Assembly: GCA_937858705.1 (NCBI GenBank)
Contig: CALLZM010000002.1
Coordinates: 2,046 to 66,045, forward strand
DNA from: an uncultured Candidatus Saccharibacteria bacterium
GTDB taxonomy: Bacteria; Patescibacteriota; Saccharimonadia; Saccharimonadales; Saccharimonadaceae
Direction: 5' to 3'
DNA length: 64,000 nt
Shown here: positions 1,052 through 41,936 of the stretch, piece after piece
Layout of the letters: each line of letters begins with the position of its first letter
How positions within the stretch are numbered: the first letter of the stretch is position 1
Position numbers and translations under genes: made by a program
The notes under the pieces: model-generated
Told to the model about the DNA's origin: nothing
The model's input: the letters and a program-made list of their open reading frames with translations, nothing else
Databases searched by the model: none

Positions 1052-1058
1052 CCCCCCC
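1052..1058 (-). repeat. homopolymer C7 (G7 on the coding strand) upstream of the 1..1005 gene
   Basis: acccccccag read directly. Lies 47-53 nt upstream of the ATG, just 5' of TACTATATA -10-like sequence. Confidence 0.8.
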
Positions 1059-23365: not shown

Positions 23366-23482
23366 TTGTTGCCTCGTCGAGAGACCAACGCCGATGCTCG
23401 GATTGCCCTTGCCATTCGACCTGTCCAGCTTGAGCTGACTATCGTTCGAGTTGACATTACCGACCATCGAGTCACCGTCCGC
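23366..23482 (-). repeat. DGR template repeat (TR)
   Basis: Aligns without gaps to 23715-23831 (offset 349). It has 30 adenines on the minus strand. In the VR frame it reads ADGDSMVGNVNSNDSQLKLDRSNGKGNPSIGVGLSTRQQ. Confidence 0.85.
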
Positions 23483-23544
23483 ACTATATACCCTGGCACT
23501 TCATACTCTACGGTTCATTCGCAAATAAAGAGAGTTACAGGCAC

Positions 23545-23573
23545 ACTATACCAGGCGCACGCGGGGCATACAA
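23545..23573 (-). promoter_or_regulatory. candidate promoter TTGTAT-17-TATAGT driving the minus-sense TR RNA
   Basis: -35 is the reverse complement of 23568-23573 and -10 that of 23545-23550. It lies ~60 nt upstream of the TR 5' boundary. Confidence 0.45.
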
Positions 23574-23702
23574 ATTATTTATTTTCGATTGCCAGGCACT
23601 CATAGATTTCAGCCCTACTCGGCAAACCAGCACCCAGGATGACAATACGAAACCAAAACCAAGTATACCACAAAAGGGGAGAAAGGAGAGAAGAGCTAAG
23701 GC

Positions 23703-24542
23703 CTAAGGGCGCTTAGCCGGCCCCGCCGAGAGACCAACGCCGACGCCCGGATTGCCCCGGCCACCCGACCCGCCCAGCTCGAGCTGACCACCGCCCGAGC
23801 GGACACCACCGACCAACGAGACGCCGACCGCGTCCTTTGTCCGACCGAGAGTTGGGTCACGCACAAAACCACGGTTGAGTACATAGTCGAGGCTTGTCGG
23901 ATCAAGCGCATCATCAACTTTTTCGCCGCGAATACGATCCATGATGACCATCATCAAAACCGCACGCGTCGAAAGATCCCAGGCAGTATGACCAGGATGG
24001 GCTTGCTCAAAGCCTTGTCCCGCGTCGTCAAGCCACTCTAGCTGCGTTTGTTTGCCCCGATCCCACCTGTCTCTTGCATAAGGGTCAAAAGGCAGACCAA
24101 GGGCATGCAATATCGGGTCTACGCCCGTATCTTCTTTGTGCGTAAAGAGAGCTAGACGACCTTCATTAATCTCTGGCCCGCCGTCTAATGCACTGCACAC
24201 ATAACCACCGCTACGACGAGATTGCTTCAGAGGCCACAGACCATCATAACGATATACCGTCGCAACTCCTTGCGGACGCTTGCCTTCAGCTCCACGCACT
24301 AGATCCTCAAATGTGGCGACTGCCGCTGCCAACGCTGGATATAGCCGGCCATCGTAGCCGAGGCGACCTACATCCTCATAATCTTCAGCGAGGCCTTTCG
24401 ACGGGGTAAAACCAAGCCACTCAAGTGCCTCGTTCGAGACATCAAGCGCTTCCTGTGTATCAGGCGCTCCACGACGGAATGGTAGATCTGGCGATGTGGA
24501 GGCCGGTCGCCGCCCAGTAGATTGAGTTACTTCAAATGCCAT
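23703..24542 (-). CDS. DGR target protein with C-terminal variable region
   Basis: 279-aa ORF whose last 39 codons are the VR. No signal peptide or TM was seen. The N-terminal ~240 aa has no family I recognise. Confidence 0.8.
   Translation of the reverse strand: MAFEVTQSTGRRPASTSPDLPFRRGAPDTQEALDVSNEALEWLGFTPSKGLAEDYEDVGRLGYDGRLYPALAAAVATFEDLVRGAEGKRPQGVATVYRYDGLWPLKQSRRSGGYVCSALDGGPEINEGRLALFTHKEDTGVDPILHALGLPFDPYARDRWDRGKQTQLEWLDDAGQGFEQAHPGHTAWDLSTRAVLMMVIMDRIRGEKVDDALDPTSLDYVLNRGFVRDPTLGRTKDAVGVSLVGGVRSGGGQLELGGSGGRGNPGVGVGLSAGPAKRP
23715..23831 (-). repeat. DGR variable repeat (VR)
   Basis: 28 of 117 positions differ from the TR, and 26 of these are at TR adenines (coding strand). Encodes AVGVSLVGGVRSGGGQLELGGSGGRGNPGVGVGLSAGPA and ends 12 nt before the stop codon. 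Confidence 0.85.
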
Positions 24543-24583
24543 GAGGGTCCTTTCTTTAGCATATAGTTACATTGTATCATATC

Positions 24584-26829
<2,246 letters not shown>

Positions 26830-26862: not shown

Positions 26863-28035
26863 CTAATGAATGTAGCGATACATACCGCTCACAGCTTCAC
26901 CCCACGATATTTTACCGTTGCCGATGCGATTGTACCCGCCGCCAAATCTATAGGCGTTCATTTCAGAAATAGTCACTGATTTACCTGGGTCAACCGCCTC
27001 AACGATAGCTACATGACCATACCAGCCACCACCATTTTGCATGACTGCACCAACTGCTGGAGTGCCATTTACTTTATAGCCAGCCGCAGCGGCGTAGCTT
27101 GCCCAAGTACTTGCGTTGCCCCACATACCGCCAACTGGTCGCCCCAGTTTAGCTCGTCGTTCATACGCATACCAAGTACAGTTACCGGCAGCATAACGGT
27201 TTCCGCCAGAGGTTGAGAGAGTATTTCCGGAGCCCCAACCGCCGCCATAGCTCCCAGAAATGCCGCCATTTGTAGCGTTATAATTGTTCGTTTGCACTGG
27301 CTCAACATAGCCAGGTCGCTCCTCTTCCGGGAGTGTACCAGATGGAATGACAAGCTGTTGACCCTGCTTCACACCATCAATTTCTAGGTCATTAAAGAGT
27401 GCTAGTTGGTCTTTATTGGCGTTATATTTTTTCGCAATGCTATCTATCGAATCGCCCGACTGTGCGGTATACAATACACCGTCAACTGGGAGAATCTTCA
27501 GTTTTTGACCAACAGAAACACTATCTCCAGTAATATTATTTGCCCACTTAACAGTTTGAGCAGACACCTGGTACTGCTCGGCAATACTTTTAATAGTATC
27601 ACCTTTCGCTACTTTGTGGTTTTTAATTTCACGACGATTTTCATTGATATTCAATACTTGCGGTTTTTCAACAACATTTGCATCGTTTTGCGCCAATACT
27701 CGCTCTGCTACAAGAGATTGAGTGAGGTTGGCTATATTATTCGTTATAGGCAGATTTGCCGTCTGTGCTACATTGGCCGCCACACTCGTGGCGATAATAT
27801 CATCGATCGATACATCAGACAGCTGAGTCGCTGACTGTCGCACCTCGATAGAGCTTGCCGCTGCATCGAAATGCTCTGGTGGCTTATAGCTAATAGCTAC
27901 GACTGCGATGATCGCTAAAAATGTTCCAGAATACATAGCTACCGAACCCGTACGAAAGTATCTTTTTGATACTCTACGCCAACTACGGTGGCTGTTTGTG
28001 CTATTTGTTTCACGCTTAAATGCCTTATGAGACAT
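26863..28035 (-). CDS. peptidoglycan hydrolase with two LysM domains and a C-terminal CHAP domain
   Basis: LysM: VAKGDTIKSIAEQYQVSAQTVKWANNI and AQSGDSIDSIAKKYNANKDQLALFNDL. CHAP: GNCTWYAYERR...GHVAIVEAV. N-terminal TM present. Confidence 0.8.
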   Translation of the reverse strand: MSHKAFKRETNSTNSHRSWRRVSKRYFRTGSVAMYSGTFLAIIAVVAISYKPPEHFDAAASSIEVRQSATQLSDVSIDDIIATSVAANVAQTANLPITNNIANLTQSLVAERVLAQNDANVVEKPQVLNINENRREIKNHKVAKGDTIKSIAEQYQVSAQTVKWANNITGDSVSVGQKLKILPVDGVLYTAQSGDSIDSIAKKYNANKDQLALFNDLEIDGVKQGQQLVIPSGTLPEEERPGYVEPVQTNNYNATNGGISGSYGGGWGSGNTLSTSGGNRYAAGNCTWYAYERRAKLGRPVGGMWGNASTWASYAAAAGYKVNGTPAVGAVMQNGGGWYGHVAIVEAVDPGKSVTISEMNAYRFGGGYNRIGNGKISWGEAVSGMYRYIH

Positions 28036-28328
28036 TGATCGTTGAATACGAATTGCTCTTCTCCTGCCTAAGTATTGCTACCTAGGACTGCTACCGGACT
28101 TTGTCTTTCTCTGCCCCTCTTAGTGAAAGTGAGGCAAGACAGAATGTACGCGTCGACCATTTTCGTTAATAGTAAAAAGTGTTTTTCGACATTCGTTGAC
28201 GACATTTTTGGCAGGCTCATGTGTCTTTCAGTCTCCCACTCGCAGGTACTTTTTGTTGTAGTACTCAGTGCTGAAATCAGATAAGCTTTTCTTATGGTAG
28301 CATTTTGGGCTATAAAAAGTCAATGTTT

Positions 28329-32762: not shown

Positions 32763-33584
32763 ATGGACCAAGATCCAAGTGAAATAGAGCCCTTCCAGCA
32801 ACAGATTATGCTCGAAAATCTGGGCTATTCTTTAAAAAGTGTCCACGAAGCGGTCACTGATCCATTCGCACCCCCCCCCTCGACAGTCGAAACCTCACTA
32901 TTCGTTCCAAGCAGTGAAATAAGACAGGCAACTGGCCGGTATGGTTTTGCCCTATCGACACTCTTAGATAAGAACAATATATGGCAAGAGTTAGGTCTCG
33001 CACATGCCTCTCTCAGTTTCCAAAAAAATGGCTCTACCATAACATTGCATCGACCGCCGAATCGTTCAAGATGGCAACTATCGGAAAATGGCCTCGGCAG
33101 CAGAGCTATTCCATTTGATAGTGTTGCTGCACTCGCTCTGCCAATATTTAAACACCCGAACGATATCACACGGAACCTTCTCGATGAAAGAGTGAATGAG
33201 CAAACCATGCTTGATGCACTTGGACAACAAGCAAGAGACAGTAAAGGGCGAGGAACAGTAGACAGAACATACCTGTTCAAATATCCGTCGACCGGTAATC
33301 ATGTGTACTTCAGGTCTACCGTCGATCAAGATGAAACACCTATCAAATACCGCCTTGGCATTGTAGGAAAATATCATTTGGGAGAAATGGTAGTCACAGA
33401 ACACATCAGAGCCAAGACTCGACTGCCTCACCCCACTAATCATCTACGACAAACCGATACTTCTGTGGAGTTTAAGCAAAAAATCGATTGCGGAAACGGT
33501 CGAAGCAGAAAACCCTCCGATTATAATACCCTAGAAAATATCATCATAGCTCTCGCCGAGGCGGCGAAGCGCATATCCGCCTAA
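32763..33584 (+). CDS. hypothetical protein carrying an in-frame C9 tract
   Basis: 273-aa ORF with no recognisable domain. Codons 37-39 (PPP) are the C9 run. Confidence 0.55.
   Translation: MDQDPSEIEPFQQQIMLENLGYSLKSVHEAVTDPFAPPPSTVETSLFVPSSEIRQATGRYGFALSTLLDKNNIWQELGLAHASLSFQKNGSTITLHRPPNRSRWQLSENGLGSRAIPFDSVAALALPIFKHPNDITRNLLDERVNEQTMLDALGQQARDSKGRGTVDRTYLFKYPSTGNHVYFRSTVDQDETPIKYRLGIVGKYHLGEMVVTEHIRAKTRLPHPTNHLRQTDTSVEFKQKIDCGNGRSRKPSDYNTLENIIIALAEAAKRISA
32871..32879 (+). repeat. homopolymer C9 inside a CDS
   Basis: gca ccc ccc ccc tcg read directly. Confidence 0.9.
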
Positions 33585-34529: not shown

Positions 34530-36584
34530 CTAGCGAACTTTGAACGCATCGATATAGATGTATTTGCCACTCACCTTTTTCACGGTGATAGTATGTTTGC
34601 CCGGCTTCAGACCGCTGCGGGTAAACGATGCGTGTTGGTATTTGCGGTACTTTTTTGGATGCTTGAGGTTGAGGTCGACGCGTGTTGGTGTGCCGCCGTC
34701 GATGCTGACATCTATCACACCTGAGTAATTGTTCGATTCATTGAACGCAGTGATGCTCGTGCCCGTAAAGGTCATGGTCATGGAGTCGCCGTTCTTAGAG
34801 GCACGATGAATCGTCCGACCAAAGTCAGGCGAAGTATCTTTGCGGTTTTTATAGGCATTCCAGCCCGAACCGGTGTATGTGATACGACTATCCATGTCGT
34901 CAATCAGCGTCGTGTCATTGTAAGTGCGTTCGTTGCCAAATGAATCTTTAACGACCAGTTTGTACTGTAGTGAAGTGCCGACCGGGACATCTGTGTCGAC
35001 ATAGGTCCACGATTTCGACTGCCACCAGTTGGCCGTCACCGTCTTTGTCGCTAGTTTGGTGCCGTCGAGGCGATAGAGCACATAGGTCAGTTTGACATTG
35101 TCATTATCGCTCGTCGTATAGACCGTCACTGTGGACTCTTTTTTGCTATTTGCTGGCGTTGCACTTACACCATAGCCAGCGTGGCGATACGGATTTGGCC
35201 CAACTTTGTTTGGCGCCTTGGCTGTAGTCGTAAATCGCACCAGCCCCTGCTGCGGCACACCACCGACCGCTGGGAATTCACCACCAATAGAGAGATAGTC
35301 TGTATTACCAACAATCGTCCAGCCGGCCTGCGCAGAACTACTCTTATTGCCGACGGTAAACTTGGGATACCAGTGAAGCAGTTCGCTGTGGTAATACCCG
35401 TCGAAAATATTCTTTGTCGGAGCTGTCGTTTCAGCAGCAACATGATGAATCGGCTGCAGCTGCGGATACATGTCAGGATACCCGCCGATGGCCGAACATT
35501 CATGTGGATGCCCTACCGAGTAGAGAATACCGCCAACCGGCACAGCGTCGTAGCTGTCGCCCTTGCACGCATTACGCCAGATGATGTTGCCGTTTGATGG
35601 GTTGATAGCCGCTCGTCCTTCAAAAGTACCAGACCCCGTCGCCCCTTGCAGATAGCTAAAGGCCGTGAAATATGCCTGCTTTCCGTCGTAGCTCGCGCTC
35701 GTGAAGCCCATACTGCTATAGGTCAATTCCTTGCCCGGCGCAGGCTTACTTATTTGCATACGGATGGGATAACTCGAGCTCTGGCTAGCCCACTTCACTT
35801 TTTTGGCAGTGTCGAGCTTGACAGCACCCGATGACAGATAGGTGCTGCCGGCAATCTGCGTGAATGCCCCAGTGATGATAAGGTTGTTTTGTTTGGACGC
35901 CACGGTCAACGCCGCCACTCGTGAACCACGCGGACCAGTCACATCTGCCTTCCACTTCGTGTCGAGCTTGCCGTTTGCCAGATACGCCGCCAAGTTGTTC
36001 CGAGGCTGGCCTGCCGCCTTGCTAAAGCCGCCACCGACATAGACTCGCTCGTTCGTCGCGGCTAGGGCCATGACACTATTGCTCGTACCATCAAAGCCTT
36101 TGAGAAGTTTGTTTGTCTTTAGGTCAAACGCGGCGAAATTACTACGAGGCTGGCCATCTACCGTGTCAAAATTACCGCCGACATAGAGCCGCGTGCCGTC
36201 TGGCGAAGCAGTCACCGCAGCGACGACTTTTTGCGATGGCTTTTTTGTAGTGATAGAGTGGACAAACGAGGTATCTAGCACTCCGGTACGGATGTCAAAC
36301 GCGAGGATATTTGTGCGTTTCACAGTGCCTTTTCCACCAAGCGCCACGCCCGCTGGTCGCGCATAGGCGAAGGTTCCGATCGCATAGACTTTGTTACCTA
36401 CCAGCACCTGGTCCCACACCATGCCGTCTACCTGCACAGTTGGTAACGGGTCGGCCGACATCGTAGCCAGTGTTTTACTCGAGGGTGGCGCTGTGTCTGC
36501 TTGTACTGGTGATATAAGTACTATCGCCATACCGATTGCAGCAATCATCACTCCATATTGTTGTACGCGATCACGAAATGACAT
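34530..36584 (-). CDS. secreted beta-propeller repeat protein with C-terminal beta-sandwich (carbohydrate-binding-like) domains
   Basis: 684 aa with a signal peptide (MIAAIGMAIVLISPVQA) and repeated xYVGGxFxxxxGxxRxNxAAxD units. Confidence 0.65.
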   Translation of the reverse strand: MSFRDRVQQYGVMIAAIGMAIVLISPVQADTAPPSSKTLATMSADPLPTVQVDGMVWDQVLVGNKVYAIGTFAYARPAGVALGGKGTVKRTNILAFDIRTGVLDTSFVHSITTKKPSQKVVAAVTASPDGTRLYVGGNFDTVDGQPRSNFAAFDLKTNKLLKGFDGTSNSVMALAATNERVYVGGGFSKAAGQPRNNLAAYLANGKLDTKWKADVTGPRGSRVAALTVASKQNNLIITGAFTQIAGSTYLSSGAVKLDTAKKVKWASQSSSYPIRMQISKPAPGKELTYSSMGFTSASYDGKQAYFTAFSYLQGATGSGTFEGRAAINPSNGNIIWRNACKGDSYDAVPVGGILYSVGHPHECSAIGGYPDMYPQLQPIHHVAAETTAPTKNIFDGYYHSELLHWYPKFTVGNKSSSAQAGWTIVGNTDYLSIGGEFPAVGGVPQQGLVRFTTTAKAPNKVGPNPYRHAGYGVSATPANSKKESTVTVYTTSDNDNVKLTYVLYRLDGTKLATKTVTANWWQSKSWTYVDTDVPVGTSLQYKLVVKDSFGNERTYNDTTLIDDMDSRITYTGSGWNAYKNRKDTSPDFGRTIHRASKNGDSMTMTFTGTSITAFNESNNYSGVIDVSIDGGTPTRVDLNLKHPKKYRKYQHASFTRSGLKPGKHTITVKKVSGKYIYIDAFKVR

Positions 36585-36727
36585 AATTTCTCTCCCATAG
36601 ACACTTAGACAGCTATATTTTATAACTTAAGCGTATTATATCACAAAGTTTATTAAAATGCAATATTTAGCTATAGTCATACTATAGTGACAGGAAATGG
36701 AAGCTTTCGCCCAATAGGCACTGGCGC

Positions 36728-37378
36728 TTACTTGATGGATGTAAGCGCTCGCAGCACCGCTATACCATCCATGGCTTTTTGATTTACCACAGCATCTTCT
36801 GAGCAGGGAGCATGCGGACCTGTATATATCAATGACGAGCCATCGCTATATTTCTTGTAAATCGTCCTGTCCGTATACGGGTCTAAGCTGCTCACTTTAC
36901 TGAAAGCGCCCAGAGGTCCGTTCTCAGAGCCGCAATATTCACCGCCTTGCTGAGTAACATATTTCGTAGAGAAACTCACCGATTCCGCCAGTGAACCATT
37001 TTGCCCCTTTGTAGCTTTATAGCTATAAGTCAAATCACCAAGCGACTCCGGAAGCTCCATAGTTATATCTAGCTCTCGGATATATAATGTTGTCGTATCA
37101 GAAGATTTCTTAGCCGTCTCCTCGGTAGGTTTATTTGCTGCACTACTTTTCAGCTCGGCAATTTGCTTCTCATAGTCACCTATCTTTGTTTGCAATGCCT
37201 GCATATCGCCTGTTTCCGCCACTGGTGCACGATTTTGCATCGCTCCATATACCGAATAGCCGATGCTAGTTAGTGCCAACAGAGCCAAAAGAATAACTCC
37301 AGCTCGCCTTAACCCCTTTCGTTCTTTTTTCTGATTGTTTGGTTCGCTCATTGGTTGTGTGTATTGATTGCTGTCCAT
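36728..37378 (-). CDS. hypothetical membrane-anchored protein
   Basis: MDSNQYTQPMSEPNNQKKERKGLRRAGVILLALLALTSIGYSV... The longest ORF (to 37429) would place the G10 tract inside the CDS. Confidence 0.55.
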   Translation of the reverse strand: MDSNQYTQPMSEPNNQKKERKGLRRAGVILLALLALTSIGYSVYGAMQNRAPVAETGDMQALQTKIGDYEKQIAELKSSAANKPTEETAKKSSDTTTLYIRELDITMELPESLGDLTYSYKATKGQNGSLAESVSFSTKYVTQQGGEYCGSENGPLGAFSKVSSLDPYTDRTIYKKYSDGSSLIYTGPHAPCSEDAVVNQKAMDGIAVLRALTSIK

Positions 37379-37395
37379 GCATTCATAGTAACATA

Positions 37396-37405
37396 CCCCC
37401 CCCCC
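37396..37405 (-). repeat. homopolymer C10 (G10 on the coding strand) in the CTAG-Gn-TAT promoter module
   Basis: Read directly. Flanked on the minus strand by ...tgCTAG and TATGTT. Confidence 0.9.
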
Positions 37406-37450
37406 TAGCAAGATTATCACTAGGGGCATAAAAAAGATAAGGCAGTGCTT

Positions 37451-37702
37451 TTAACTAGACAGCGCTACTGCTATCAATACCCAAACACCTATGTAGGCGA
37501 GTGCGGCAACTGACCAGATCCCCCCAATAACCATGCTTATAGTGCCAAACCTTGCTGGCATATTTGCTGCTTTTGATTTTTTGCGCGATATGGCACCGAG
37601 AATAATGCTAAGCGGAAAAAGACCGATAAAGCTCAGCGCTATGCCGATGATACCGATCGCGTCTCCTGGATTCTTCGTGGGCCGTGATATACTCTCTGAC
37701 AT
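37451..37702 (-). CDS. small DUF4190-like membrane protein
   Basis: MSESISRPTKNPGDAIGIIGIALSFIGLFPLSIILGAISRKKSK... A TATAGT box lies 6 nt upstream of this ATG. Confidence 0.55.
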   Translation of the reverse strand: MSESISRPTKNPGDAIGIIGIALSFIGLFPLSIILGAISRKKSKAANMPARFGTISMVIGGIWSVAALAYIGVWVLIAVALSS

Positions 37703-37779
37703 AGCTTTACTATAACAGATATTTGGTAAAATAAAAGAATATAGCGCCAATACTCCGCACGACATTCTAGTCATATAAG

Positions 37780-38339
37780 CTACAGTACATAATAGCCAGT
37801 GAATCGACAGTCCTCATCATAGCCAGTTTGCGCAAAGTAAGGCTGGCACGGATGCTCATCCTTAAATTCACCAGTAGCTCCTACGGTATAAAGATGCCAT
37901 ACTTTCTCTGCCCAATTCCAATAAGCATAATTGATGACAATTCCATCGAAAGATAGTGCTACATAGATCTTCTGCGTATCAAAGCGAGGAATTTCTCCTA
38001 CGACTAGGTCTGGGTAGCATGATATATCAAATTCTCTTATGCACAATTTTTCAGACAGTCCCGATAGGCCATTCGCTGCAAGAAATTCAGAGCGTGTCAT
38101 CGTAAGATGATGTCCCTCTCCCCCGTATGGAGTAATTGTCGAGTAACCCTGTGGGTGGGTCACTTTATTAGATTTGAGCGTAGTATTGAGACTTTTTTTG
38201 CAGTTGCCGCCATGGATGAGTCTGCTGCTCGATGTTGTATGCCCGTGTAACCTACGATGCCAATAGCGGCAAGAATGGCGATGATGATAATGATTATCAA
38301 GAGTTCGACAATAGTGAATCCGGCTGTGGTTTTCCTCAT
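37780..38339 (-). pseudogene. type IV pilin-like gene split by a frameshift at an A7 tract (pseudogene, phase-OFF allele or -1 PRF)
   Basis: Frame A (38339->38160) gives [59 protein letters not shown]. The 3' 430 nt are open in the -1 frame (ORF 37780..38376). One extra A or a -1 slip joins them. Confidence 0.65.
38193..38199 (-). repeat. homopolymer T7 (A7 on the coding strand) at the pilin frameshift site
   Basis: In frame A it reads gcA AAA AAA Gtc, an X_XXY_YYZ slippery heptamer. Confidence 0.9.
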
Positions 38340-38346
38340 AGATATG

Positions 38347-38376
38347 AGTATACCCCCCCCCTAGCAGTGATGTCAA
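38347..38376 (-). promoter_or_regulatory. promoter TTGACA-18-TATACT with a G9 tract (38353-38361) in the spacer
   Basis: -35 is the reverse complement of 38371-38376 and -10 that of 38347-38352. The -10 lies 7 nt from the pilin ATG. Confidence 0.6.
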
Positions 38377-39977: not shown

Positions 39978-41876
39978 TCAGGCGAGGACGCCTTTAACGC
40001 GGCGGATACCAGCAGAGGAGGATTCTTCTTTGGTGATTTTGAAGCGTTTGCCGTTGGGCGTGCCATCGTCATTTTGTGAGAGCTGACCAGTATGGTCGGC
40101 GTGGGGGCCGCCGCAGATTTCAAAGCTGGCGCGCCTGTCGCCCTCGCCCATTTGGTAGACTTTGACCGTCTCGCCGTAGCGGTCACCAAATGCGCCGATG
40201 GCACCCATTTTGAAAGCTTCGTCGGTAGGATATTCTTTGTAGCTGACGGGTAAATCTTCGTCAATCCAGGCGTTGACCATGCGTTCGACTTCGTCCAGCT
40301 GCTCGCGGGTGACTTTTTCGTCGTTGTTGAAGTCAAAGCGTAGGCGCTCTTCAGTGATATTGCTGCCGTGCTGGGTGACATGCTCGCCAACGACTTTTTT
40401 GAGTGCGGCATACATGAGGTGATTGGCCGTGTGTAAGCGGCGGTGCGCCATGGTTTGCCCGCCGAGGCCGCCTTTGAAGACACCTTTGGCAGCAGTCTGT
40501 GAGCGCTTGCGCTGTTCTTGCATACAGGCATCAAACTCACTCTTCCAATCTTTGTCTAGCCGTATACTTTCACGACGGGCTATCTCGGTGCTTAGCTCAA
40601 CTGGAAAGCCATAAGTATCGTGCAGAGTGAATAGCTCTTTGCCGGTCAAACCGTCTTCAATAAATCGCCTGAGATGCTTTACTCCCTTCAGTAGTGTTCG
40701 CGTAAACGCTTTTTCCTCCTTCATGAGAGTGATGATAATTTTATCTCGGTTCTCGGCAACTTCTGGAAAATCATTCGCATATAAGTCGGCAATGACTGGT
40801 ACAATTTCTTCAAAAAATTCTTCACTAATACCAAGTTCATTTGCAAATCGAATCGCCCGACGGAGCAGCCGACGCATAACATAGCCCTGCTCTTTGTTGC
40901 TCGGCGCACAACCATCAACCGCCAAGAAGGTCGCCGCACGCAGGTGGTCGGCGATGACGCGCATACTTTCGGTGTGGCTTTCGTACTTTTTGCCACTCAG
41001 AACTTGCAACTTTTCGATAATTGGCCACATGAGGCTAATCTTGAAGACATCCGGGTCGCCCAGTTTTGCCGCGGCAATGCGCTCCAGGCCAGAGCCATGG
41101 TCGATATTTTTCTGTTCCAGCTCTTCAAATTGCCCTTCCGCGACTTTGCGATAGGCCATGAAGACATTGTTGCCGATTTCCATAAACCGGCCACAGTCAC
41201 AGTTCGGGTGGCAGTGCTCGCCAAACTCGGGATTGTGTGGCGTGCCAAAGTCATAAAACATCTCACTATCTGGGCCACACGGGTCGCCCACCGGGGTGGT
41301 TTCTGGCGAACCGTTGCGACTCCACCAGTTTTTCGAACCGTCATAGTAGAAAATCCGCTCGCCTTCTTTAATGCCGCGTTCATAGCCCGATTCTTCCGAA
41401 CCAATATCCGCTTGACCATGACTCAGCCCGGCTTTTTCATATAGCTCTGCCCACACCTCGGCCGCTTCTGTATCTTTTGGAATACCATAGCGCTCATCGC
41501 CGATATAGCAGGTGACATAGACTTTTGACATATCGAGCTCAACCACTTCTGACAAAAACTCCCACATCCAGCGGATTTGCTGTTCCTTAAAGTAATCGCC
41601 CATGCTCCAATTACCCAACATCTCAAAAAAGGTCGTGTGGCGATTGTTGCCGACATCGTCAATATCCTGCGCACGCAGGCACGTTTGTGAATCAACAATT
41701 CGTTTACCCTCAGGGTGTGGCTGCCCCAACAGGTACGGAATCATCGGCTGCATACCACTGCCCGTAAACAGCGTCGTCGGGTCGCCCGTCAGCACCAATG
41801 GCGCGCGCTTGATAGCAGCGTGGCCACGATTCTCAAAAAACTTTATATACGCATTGCGGATTTGTTGAGTATTCAT
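39978..41876 (-). CDS. alaS: alanine--tRNA ligase, short form lacking the C-Ala domain
   Basis: MNTQQIRNAYIKFFENRGH..., FTGSGMQP, editing-domain HTANHLMYAAL and CGGPHADHTG. 632 aa from this Met. Confidence 0.9.
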   Translation of the reverse strand: MNTQQIRNAYIKFFENRGHAAIKRAPLVLTGDPTTLFTGSGMQPMIPYLLGQPHPEGKRIVDSQTCLRAQDIDDVGNNRHTTFFEMLGNWSMGDYFKEQQIRWMWEFLSEVVELDMSKVYVTCYIGDERYGIPKDTEAAEVWAELYEKAGLSHGQADIGSEESGYERGIKEGERIFYYDGSKNWWSRNGSPETTPVGDPCGPDSEMFYDFGTPHNPEFGEHCHPNCDCGRFMEIGNNVFMAYRKVAEGQFEELEQKNIDHGSGLERIAAAKLGDPDVFKISLMWPIIEKLQVLSGKKYESHTESMRVIADHLRAATFLAVDGCAPSNKEQGYVMRRLLRRAIRFANELGISEEFFEEIVPVIADLYANDFPEVAENRDKIIITLMKEEKAFTRTLLKGVKHLRRFIEDGLTGKELFTLHDTYGFPVELSTEIARRESIRLDKDWKSEFDACMQEQRKRSQTAAKGVFKGGLGGQTMAHRRLHTANHLMYAALKKVVGEHVTQHGSNITEERLRFDFNNDEKVTREQLDEVERMVNAWIDEDLPVSYKEYPTDEAFKMGAIGAFGDRYGETVKVYQMGEGDRRASFEICGGPHADHTGQLSQNDDGTPNGKRFKITKEESSSAGIRRVKGVLA

Positions 41877-41936
41877 ATCTGTTATTATATCACTCGACTT
41901 TACACTAAACAAAATTCAATAAGCCAGGCCTTTTCG

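Follow-up and report, generated by a model that had tools for sequence, protein, structure and literature searches.

Poly-G tracts in a Saccharibacteria surface-protein island as candidate slipped-strand contingency switches

Do the long G runs that accompany surface-protein genes in an uncultured Candidatus Saccharibacteria bacterium act as contingency switches, and at which step of gene expression would they do so? We addressed this question in 64,000 nucleotides (nt) of its DNA (the window; contig CALLZM010000002.1 of assembly GCA_937858705.1, positions 2,046 to 66,045), where a minus-strand tract of nine G (G9) precedes a type IV pilin gene with its ATG at 38339, and a tract of ten (G10) precedes the next gene but one, with its ATG at 37378 (gene 37378). 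An earlier sequence-only reading had placed both tracts in the spacer between the -35 and -10 hexamers of a shared promoter module and likened them to the poly-G spacers of Neisseria. With a third tract, located inside an orphan gene of the same island, now taken into account, we estimate a probability of about 0.6 that the three tracts are hypermutable and act as contingency switches via slipped-strand mispairing; for the pilin promoter tract this reading appears well supported.

Long G tracts and their promoter setting

Both promoter-side tracts were re-read and found with the positions and sequences first reported, and re-counting gave the same spacers, 18 nt at the pilin gene and 19 nt between GTGATA and TATGTT at gene 37378. 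The window contains 13 G/C runs of 5 nt, two of 6, one of 7, none of 8, two of 9 and one of 10. Analytical estimates, based either on how run lengths are distributed or on dinucleotide frequencies, predict 0.01–0.1 runs of at least 9 nt in 64 kb, against three observed, all inside 5.5 kb, so the tracts lie far beyond chance. The two promoter-side tracts are not alone, since the sequence-only reading had overlooked the third tract of nine G (32871–32879) and a G7 tract (1052–1058), both on the minus strand. Tandem Repeats Finder returned no further short-unit repeat of the contingency type.

All three long tracts fall in a surface-protein island of 7.2 kb, flanked by alaS and ftsA. The genes of this island encode an fn3/GDPD/PG-binding protein, the type IV pilin, an 83-amino-acid (aa) membrane protein, a 216-aa membrane-anchored protein (gene 37378), a 684-aa secreted beta-propeller protein, a 288-aa membrane protein and, on the plus strand, the orphan. 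Since ftsA directly follows alaS in relatives, and tblastn of the island proteins against the relatives' alaS-ftsA loci gave no match, the island is absent from them.

On the minus strand, the region ahead of the pilin gene reads TTGACA, tcactgcta, G9, TATACT, catatct and ATG. A promoter scan matched 11 of the 12 consensus positions, a sequence fit that agrees with the proposed pilin promoter, with its consensus -35 hexamer, its near-consensus -10 and its spacer half made of G9. The -10 hexamer TATACT lacks a TG extension. Because the ATG lies 7 nt past this hexamer, where transcription is predicted to start, and no Shine-Dalgarno sequence precedes it, a leaderless pilin mRNA is predicted, transcribed from a -35-dependent promoter; a promoter of this predicted type is the arrangement in which spacer length counts most. 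The pilin spacer measures 17 nt with G8, 18 nt with G9 and 19 nt with G10. Replication slippage at the tract would thus shift the spacer among these three lengths, and after each slip the leaderless pilin mRNA should be transcribed more or less strongly than before. Inverted repeats surround the -35 region (GCAGTG-N17-CACTGC).

Leaderless transcription would not be peculiar to the pilin gene. The extended -10 motif TGnTAnnnT occurred 5–9 nt ahead of 13 long open reading frame (ORF) starts, against 3.8 ± 2.5 for permuted motifs; with offsets of 10–14 nt yielding 12 matches, this enrichment is suggestive, not decisive. The motif lies close to the starts of alaS, obg, an aminotransferase gene, an exonuclease gene and the small membrane gene, and examples without a Shine-Dalgarno sequence are found at 41876, 44753, 26817, 22962, 17168, 12960 and 52692. 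Taken at face value, this layout suggests that leaderless mRNAs are common in the Saccharibacterium of the window.

The same layout changes the picture at gene 37378, where the minus strand reads GTGATA, atcttgcta, G10, TATGTT, actatgaatgc and ATG. GTGATA-19-TATGTT, the promoter originally put forward for this gene, is doubtful and probably not the true one, because the extended -10 leaderless layout recurs in the window: the extended -10 TGTTACTAT fits better, and alaS, obg and the small membrane gene share its arrangement. With TGTTACTAT as the promoter element, G10 would occupy about -27 to -18, with the extended -10 on one side and a -35-like TTGCTA (15-nt spacer) on the other. An effect of tract length at this gene is plausible, though probably weaker and less certain than at the pilin gene.

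What the two promoter-side tracts do share is a module. It had been described as CTAG-G9, a notation that counts one G twice, since the run already begins with the G of CTAG; the core common to both is TGCTA-Gn-TAT. Their likeness extends beyond this core, as TGAYAWYMYTGCTA-Gn-TATRYTMMTATS, and about 19 of 33 flanking positions are identical. What looks like a third copy of the promoter module is the site of the G7 tract, which follows TTGCT and abuts the extended -10 TGCTACTAT; slippage might change promoter geometry here too. The C-terminus of the 534-aa protein encoded downstream (on the 1–1005 side of the window) consists of VPNTG, a hydrophobic segment and a basic tail, resembling a sorting signal; a sortase gene follows beyond the window start, and the protein is a likely sortase substrate. 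The tract is G7 in both assemblies checked. Contig k141_185956 of ENA ERZ27240677 is 100% identical to the window over the stretch compared.

The third long tract lies in a 5' coding region. With C9 on the plus strand the 273-aa orphan frame is open, whereas with C10 the product ends at around 50 codons, and gene callers report 248 or 179 aa instead; in-frame and out-of-frame alleles occur in different assemblies. The orphan gene would thus carry a frameshift switch, on at C9 and off at C10. Its protein forms a single cluster among 5.8 billion proteins, with no homologue outside its own species, and the 273-aa product, which requires C9, is also on record from NCBI, Logan and one further ENA contig.

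A terminator or attenuator at the G tracts was considered and rejected: predicted hairpins had z-scores of -1.4 and -1.6 relative to shuffled sequences, no T-run followed, and a scan returned no terminator-like site. An Rfam search of the island gave no match.

Tract lengths across assemblies

The same locus was fetched from public assemblies through exact-protein look-ups, and the lengths given are those of assembly consensus sequences. The pilin tract was G9 in the window and in GCA_035326945.1, and G10 in five others (ERZ794926/GCA_035326905.1, SRR2107183, ERZ15186057, JGI 3300045387 and JGI 3300045326); the commonest allele, with its 19-nt spacer, is thus farther from the optimum than the G9 of the window. 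At gene 37378 the tract was G10 in all four to five assemblies that have it. The third tract was C9 in the window, JGI 3300045341 and ERZ28615020, and C10 in ERZ794926 and GCA_035326905.1. Comparison of sister genomes, as the sequence-only reading had proposed, thus gave a divided answer: since both G9 and G10 occur, the pilin tract is not of uniform length, whereas the tract of gene 37378 is so far, in the four to five assemblies compared.

Pairwise alignments placed these differences in context. Over 22 kb, ERZ794926 NODE_228, which is identical to GCA_035326905.1 across this stretch, differs from the window by a cluster of 11 single-nucleotide polymorphisms (SNPs) in alaS, one additional G in the pilin tract and one in the tract at 32871, with no further indels and with all A7/T7 runs the same. 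GCA_035326945.1 shows the same 11 SNPs relative to the window over 6.3 kb, with zero gaps. These SNPs fall within 40 nt (40215–40254), and over 22 kb no other substitution separates the window from two other assemblies, which suggests recombination over a short patch or an assembly that followed the path of another strain.

Two further searches were negative. A 62-aa antisense ORF that served as a barcode of the G9 allele had no entry in an exact look-up. Scans of JGI metagenome contigs with a degenerate pattern for both modules at any tract length, and for the third tract, gave no match in a collection that evidently lacks the short JGI contigs known from protein look-ups.

The recurrence of the tracts in independent assemblies supports the slippage model. 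Absence of MutS and MutL should raise slippage at repeats, as in Campylobacter and Helicobacter. Neither protein was found in Saccharibacteria (PMC8406219), and high slippage is therefore expected. What the sequences show are the tracts, where they lie relative to promoter-like hexamers and start codons, and how their lengths differ between assemblies; we infer that the hexamers are promoters, that tract length affects expression and that switching is frequent and reversible.

The pilin gene itself presents a complication. Its identity as a pilin was upheld: the N-terminus carries a class III signal peptide, with a G/FTxxE motif and a hydrophobic alpha-1 helix, and more than 1000 homologues carry PF07963. 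The gene at ATG 38339 is nevertheless not intact, as the ORF of the window breaks after 59 codons at a run of seven A (A7) and does not continue into the globular C-terminal domain. A sister strain of about 99.3–99.5% DNA identity has A5 at this position, an intact 185-aa pilin (P0005) and a promoter tract of G10, and P0005 is 98% identical to the fused pilin of the window over 100% of the fused sequence. All contigs with a split pilin carry A7. Judging from the sequence, a -1 slip on A_AAA_AAA would enter the right pilin frame; an A8 allele would likewise restore it, and no such allele (186 aa) was present in the protein cluster listing.

A variant strain (SRR23702529, ERZ15186057) lacks a 2.87-kb segment, 34579–37445, and has the 8 nt GGCATCGC in its place. 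With this segment the variant has lost the G10 module, the 216-aa gene and all of the 684-aa gene except its last ~50 nt, a remnant that points to a deletion.

Table 1. Positions of the tracts, promoter elements and genes discussed, in window coordinates.
Feature	Position	Strand	Remarks
-35 hexamer TTGACA, predicted pilin promoter	38371..38376	-	TTGACA-18-TATACT, 11/12 consensus matches
G9 tract, half of pilin -35/-10 spacer	38353..38361	-	G10 in other assemblies
-10 hexamer TATACT, 7 nt ahead of ATG 38339	38347..38352	-	no Shine-Dalgarno sequence; leaderless mRNA predicted
N-terminal type IV pilin fragment, 59 aa, prepilin N-methylation motif	38160..38339	-	stopped by frameshift; N_methyl 21.6 bits (cut-off 21.2)
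A7 run, break point of pilin frame	38193..38199	-	sister strain: A5, pilin intact
C-terminal pilin part, shifted frame	37780..38192	-	gene callers give 106-aa ORF 37780-38100
83-aa small membrane protein between the two modules	37451..37702	-	own extended -10 TGTTATAGT, 6 nt before ATG
G10 tract upstream of gene 37378	37396..37405	-	non-coding; unvarying in all assemblies seen
Extended -10 TGTTACTAT, 6 nt before ATG 37378	37385..37393	-	preferred promoter reading
216-aa membrane-anchored protein (gene 37378)	36728..37378	-	family of ~100 representative proteins, no Pfam domain
684-aa secreted beta-propeller / CE2_N-like protein, downstream of gene 37378	34530..36584	-	
Orphan gene, 273 aa	32763..33584	+	TGATATAAT and AGGAG directly ahead of ATG 32763
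C9 tract (G9 on minus strand)	32871..32879	+	codons 37-39 of orphan gene 32763-33584, encoding PPP
G7 tract abutting extended -10 TGCTACTAT, after TTGCT	1052..1058	-	upstream of 534-aa secreted protein

Outside the island, the alanyl-tRNA synthetase encoded by alaS (AlaRS, 39978–41912) shares at most 82% identity with those of Saccharibacteria metagenome-assembled genomes, and when AlaRS was used to scan a genome collection, no conspecific genome turned up, the best match being 82% identical. An Rfam lysM-TM7 cis-regulatory RNA (28061–28216, 77 bits) lies upstream of a LysM/CHAP gene (26863–28035). The window also contains a diversity-generating retroelement (23371–25537), with a 317-aa RVT_1 reverse transcriptase on the minus strand (24584–25537), a template repeat at about 23371–23482 and a variable repeat at about 23720–23831 in the 3' end of a 279-aa ORF (23703–24542); mismatches between the two copies of this 112-nt repeat fall exclusively at A positions of the template copy.

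Alternative explanations

Several observations weigh against contingency switching. The tract of gene 37378 did not vary in the four to five assemblies, and the pilin alleles seen, G9 and G10 only, both miss the 17-nt optimum. Consensus calls at runs of 9–10 G can be affected by sequencing error, and some of the compared assemblies may come from shared samples. Because the frameshift at A7 splits the ORF, the pilin promoter drives a broken gene in the genome of the window, and selection on this promoter may be relaxed, since the pilin of the lineage is frameshifted. A distant pilin homologue (P0006, 41% identity), the nearest one that is not conspecific, lacks such a promoter: its gene lies inside an operon, 14 nt past the preceding gene and with no poly-G, so the poly-G module is not conserved with the pilin family. 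Finally, relatives are almost without long G runs (three G/C runs of at least 8 nt in 80 alaS-centred loci, ~1.3 Mb), which makes the tracts a lineage-specific feature and not a phylum-wide system.

Part of this evidence would also fit the alternative that survives best, although we regard it as unlikely: the tracts would be real but non-regulatory, neutral slippage-prone runs in a fast-evolving, partly decaying island, with 1-nt differences due to drift or consensus noise. A broken pilin ORF, a variant strain that has deleted gene 37378 and the 684-aa gene, a third tract inside a functionally uncharacterised orphan gene, and a commonest pilin state with a poor 19-nt spacer speak for this alternative. 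However, without selection to maintain them it would be very unlikely to see, inside 5.5 kb, three runs of 9–10 G that all lie either at a promoter or within the first 40 codons of a gene, and G/C runs of at least 8 nt are nearly absent from the rest of the window and from relatives. Moreover, the strain with the intact pilin retains the tract, and A/T runs of 7 nt are constant between assemblies while two of the three G tracts vary.

The C-stretch of the Bordetella pertussis fim2 and fim3 promoters, which sets the distance from the BvgA site to the -10 and thereby underlies fimbrial phase variation, provides a second alternative. By analogy, the poly-G would position or bind a transcription factor, and its length would tune the geometry of an activator instead of the sigma-70 -35/-10 spacing. 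As in Bordetella, a G/C homopolymer lies in the promoter of a pilin or fimbrial subunit gene. The conserved 5' flank of the three promoter-associated tracts (TGCTA at the two long ones, TTGCT at G7), the abutment of the tract, at both gene 37378 and the G7 gene, on an extended -10 (an element that works without a -35), and the inverted repeats around the pilin -35 region would all be compatible with a bound factor. Nevertheless, a candidate regulator was not identified, the predicted hairpins were no stabler than shuffled sequences and, in contrast to the BvgA-activated fim promoters, the pilin promoter has a perfect TTGACA at a near-canonical distance from its -10; we therefore consider an activator-based mechanism improbable.

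A third possibility, raised as a proviso in the sequence-only reading, was that G10 at 37396–37405 is coding. It would then work as an intragenic frameshift switch in a 233-aa ORF starting at ATG 37429. Despite an ORF in frame with G10, a 233-aa product in one set of gene calls and the in-frame length G10 in all assemblies, this is very hard to sustain, because none of 101 representative homologues aligns to residues 1–17 and several begin at about residue 18, which is ATG 37378, so that ATG 37378 is the start and G10 is non-coding, and because the NCBI annotation gives 216 aa, the extended -10 lies 6 nt before ATG 37378 in the layout of many other genes, and the same module is clearly non-coding at the pilin gene. 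Slipped-strand mispairing, acting on promoter geometry at the pilin gene and on the reading frame of the orphan gene, thus remains our preferred explanation.

Known systems and meaning for Saccharibacteria

The switch envisaged here has known counterparts. In Neisseria meningitidis porA, a poly-G tract lies between the -10 and -35 (PMC3639595; PMC7864442). The pilin promoter resembles porA in having, by sequence, a G homopolymer in the predicted -35/-10 spacer of a surface-protein gene and a tract length that differs among close genomes. In porA, tract length alters the spacer and hence transcription, and the same is predicted for the pilin promoter. Unlike porA, which belongs to a proteobacterial pathogen, the present tracts are found in a Saccharibacterium, an episymbiont of the Candidate Phyla Radiation (CPR), with a predicted leaderless mRNA and with spacers of 18–19 nt, both over the optimum. 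At the pilin tract, the sequence fits the proposed Neisseria-type spacer switch and the length varies; at gene 37378, no variation was seen and a better promoter reading exists.

Treponema pallidum offers a further parallel. The -35/-10 spacer of its tp0126 promoter contains a poly-G tract, and expression is best when this spacer measures 17 nt; in the promoters of tprE, tprG, tprJ and tprL tracts of at most 8 G are permissive (PMC7864442). Like the Saccharibacterium, it is a small-genome, host-dependent bacterium with several poly-G tracts of 7–11 nt upstream of putative surface-protein genes, and in both cases the position of a tract helped to redefine ORF starts, here 233 versus 216 aa (PMC7864442). 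In T. pallidum, however, variation was measured within isolates and its effect was shown with reporter fusions (PMC7864442), whereas the differences reported here are between assembly consensus sequences. The third tract, with its in-frame C9 and out-of-frame C10 alleles, is of the kind seen in the intragenic poly-G/C switches of Campylobacter, Helicobacter and Neisseria, such as hmbR and hpuAB (PMC3786947), from which it differs in lying in an orphan gene without a predicted function or an evident surface signal. Set apart from both porA and T. pallidum are the shared TGCTA-Gn-TAT module and the clustering of the tracts in one island that relatives lack.

Literature searches for simple-repeat phase variation gave no match for Saccharibacteria, and across the CPR the sole match was a hypervariable repeat gene in a Gracilibacterium. 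This kind of slippage switch, known from Neisseria and Treponema, thus apparently has not yet been described in Saccharibacteria. Tract variation also bears on annotation, since gene calls in the island differ between pipelines and assemblies (233 versus 216 aa; 273 versus 248 versus 179 aa) because of tract length alone.

In cultivated Saccharibacteria, attachment to the host and episymbiosis are driven by type IV pili (PMC9894109; PMC11623550). A poly-G switch on a pilin promoter and on surface genes nearby, if true, would be a simple, testable mechanism for heterogeneity of host binding within a population, in a lineage in which the absence of MutS and MutL should make homopolymers especially unstable. 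More tentatively, and with somewhat less than even confidence, we propose that some Saccharibacteria, as host-attached bacteria devoid of mismatch repair, maintain a small poly-G phasome in a strain-specific pilin and surface-protein island beside a diversity-generating retroelement. Were this so, the CPR would have its first contingency system based on simple repeats, built from TGCTA-Gn-TAT modules on leaderless genes, and single cells would stochastically vary the structures with which they recognise and bind host cells.

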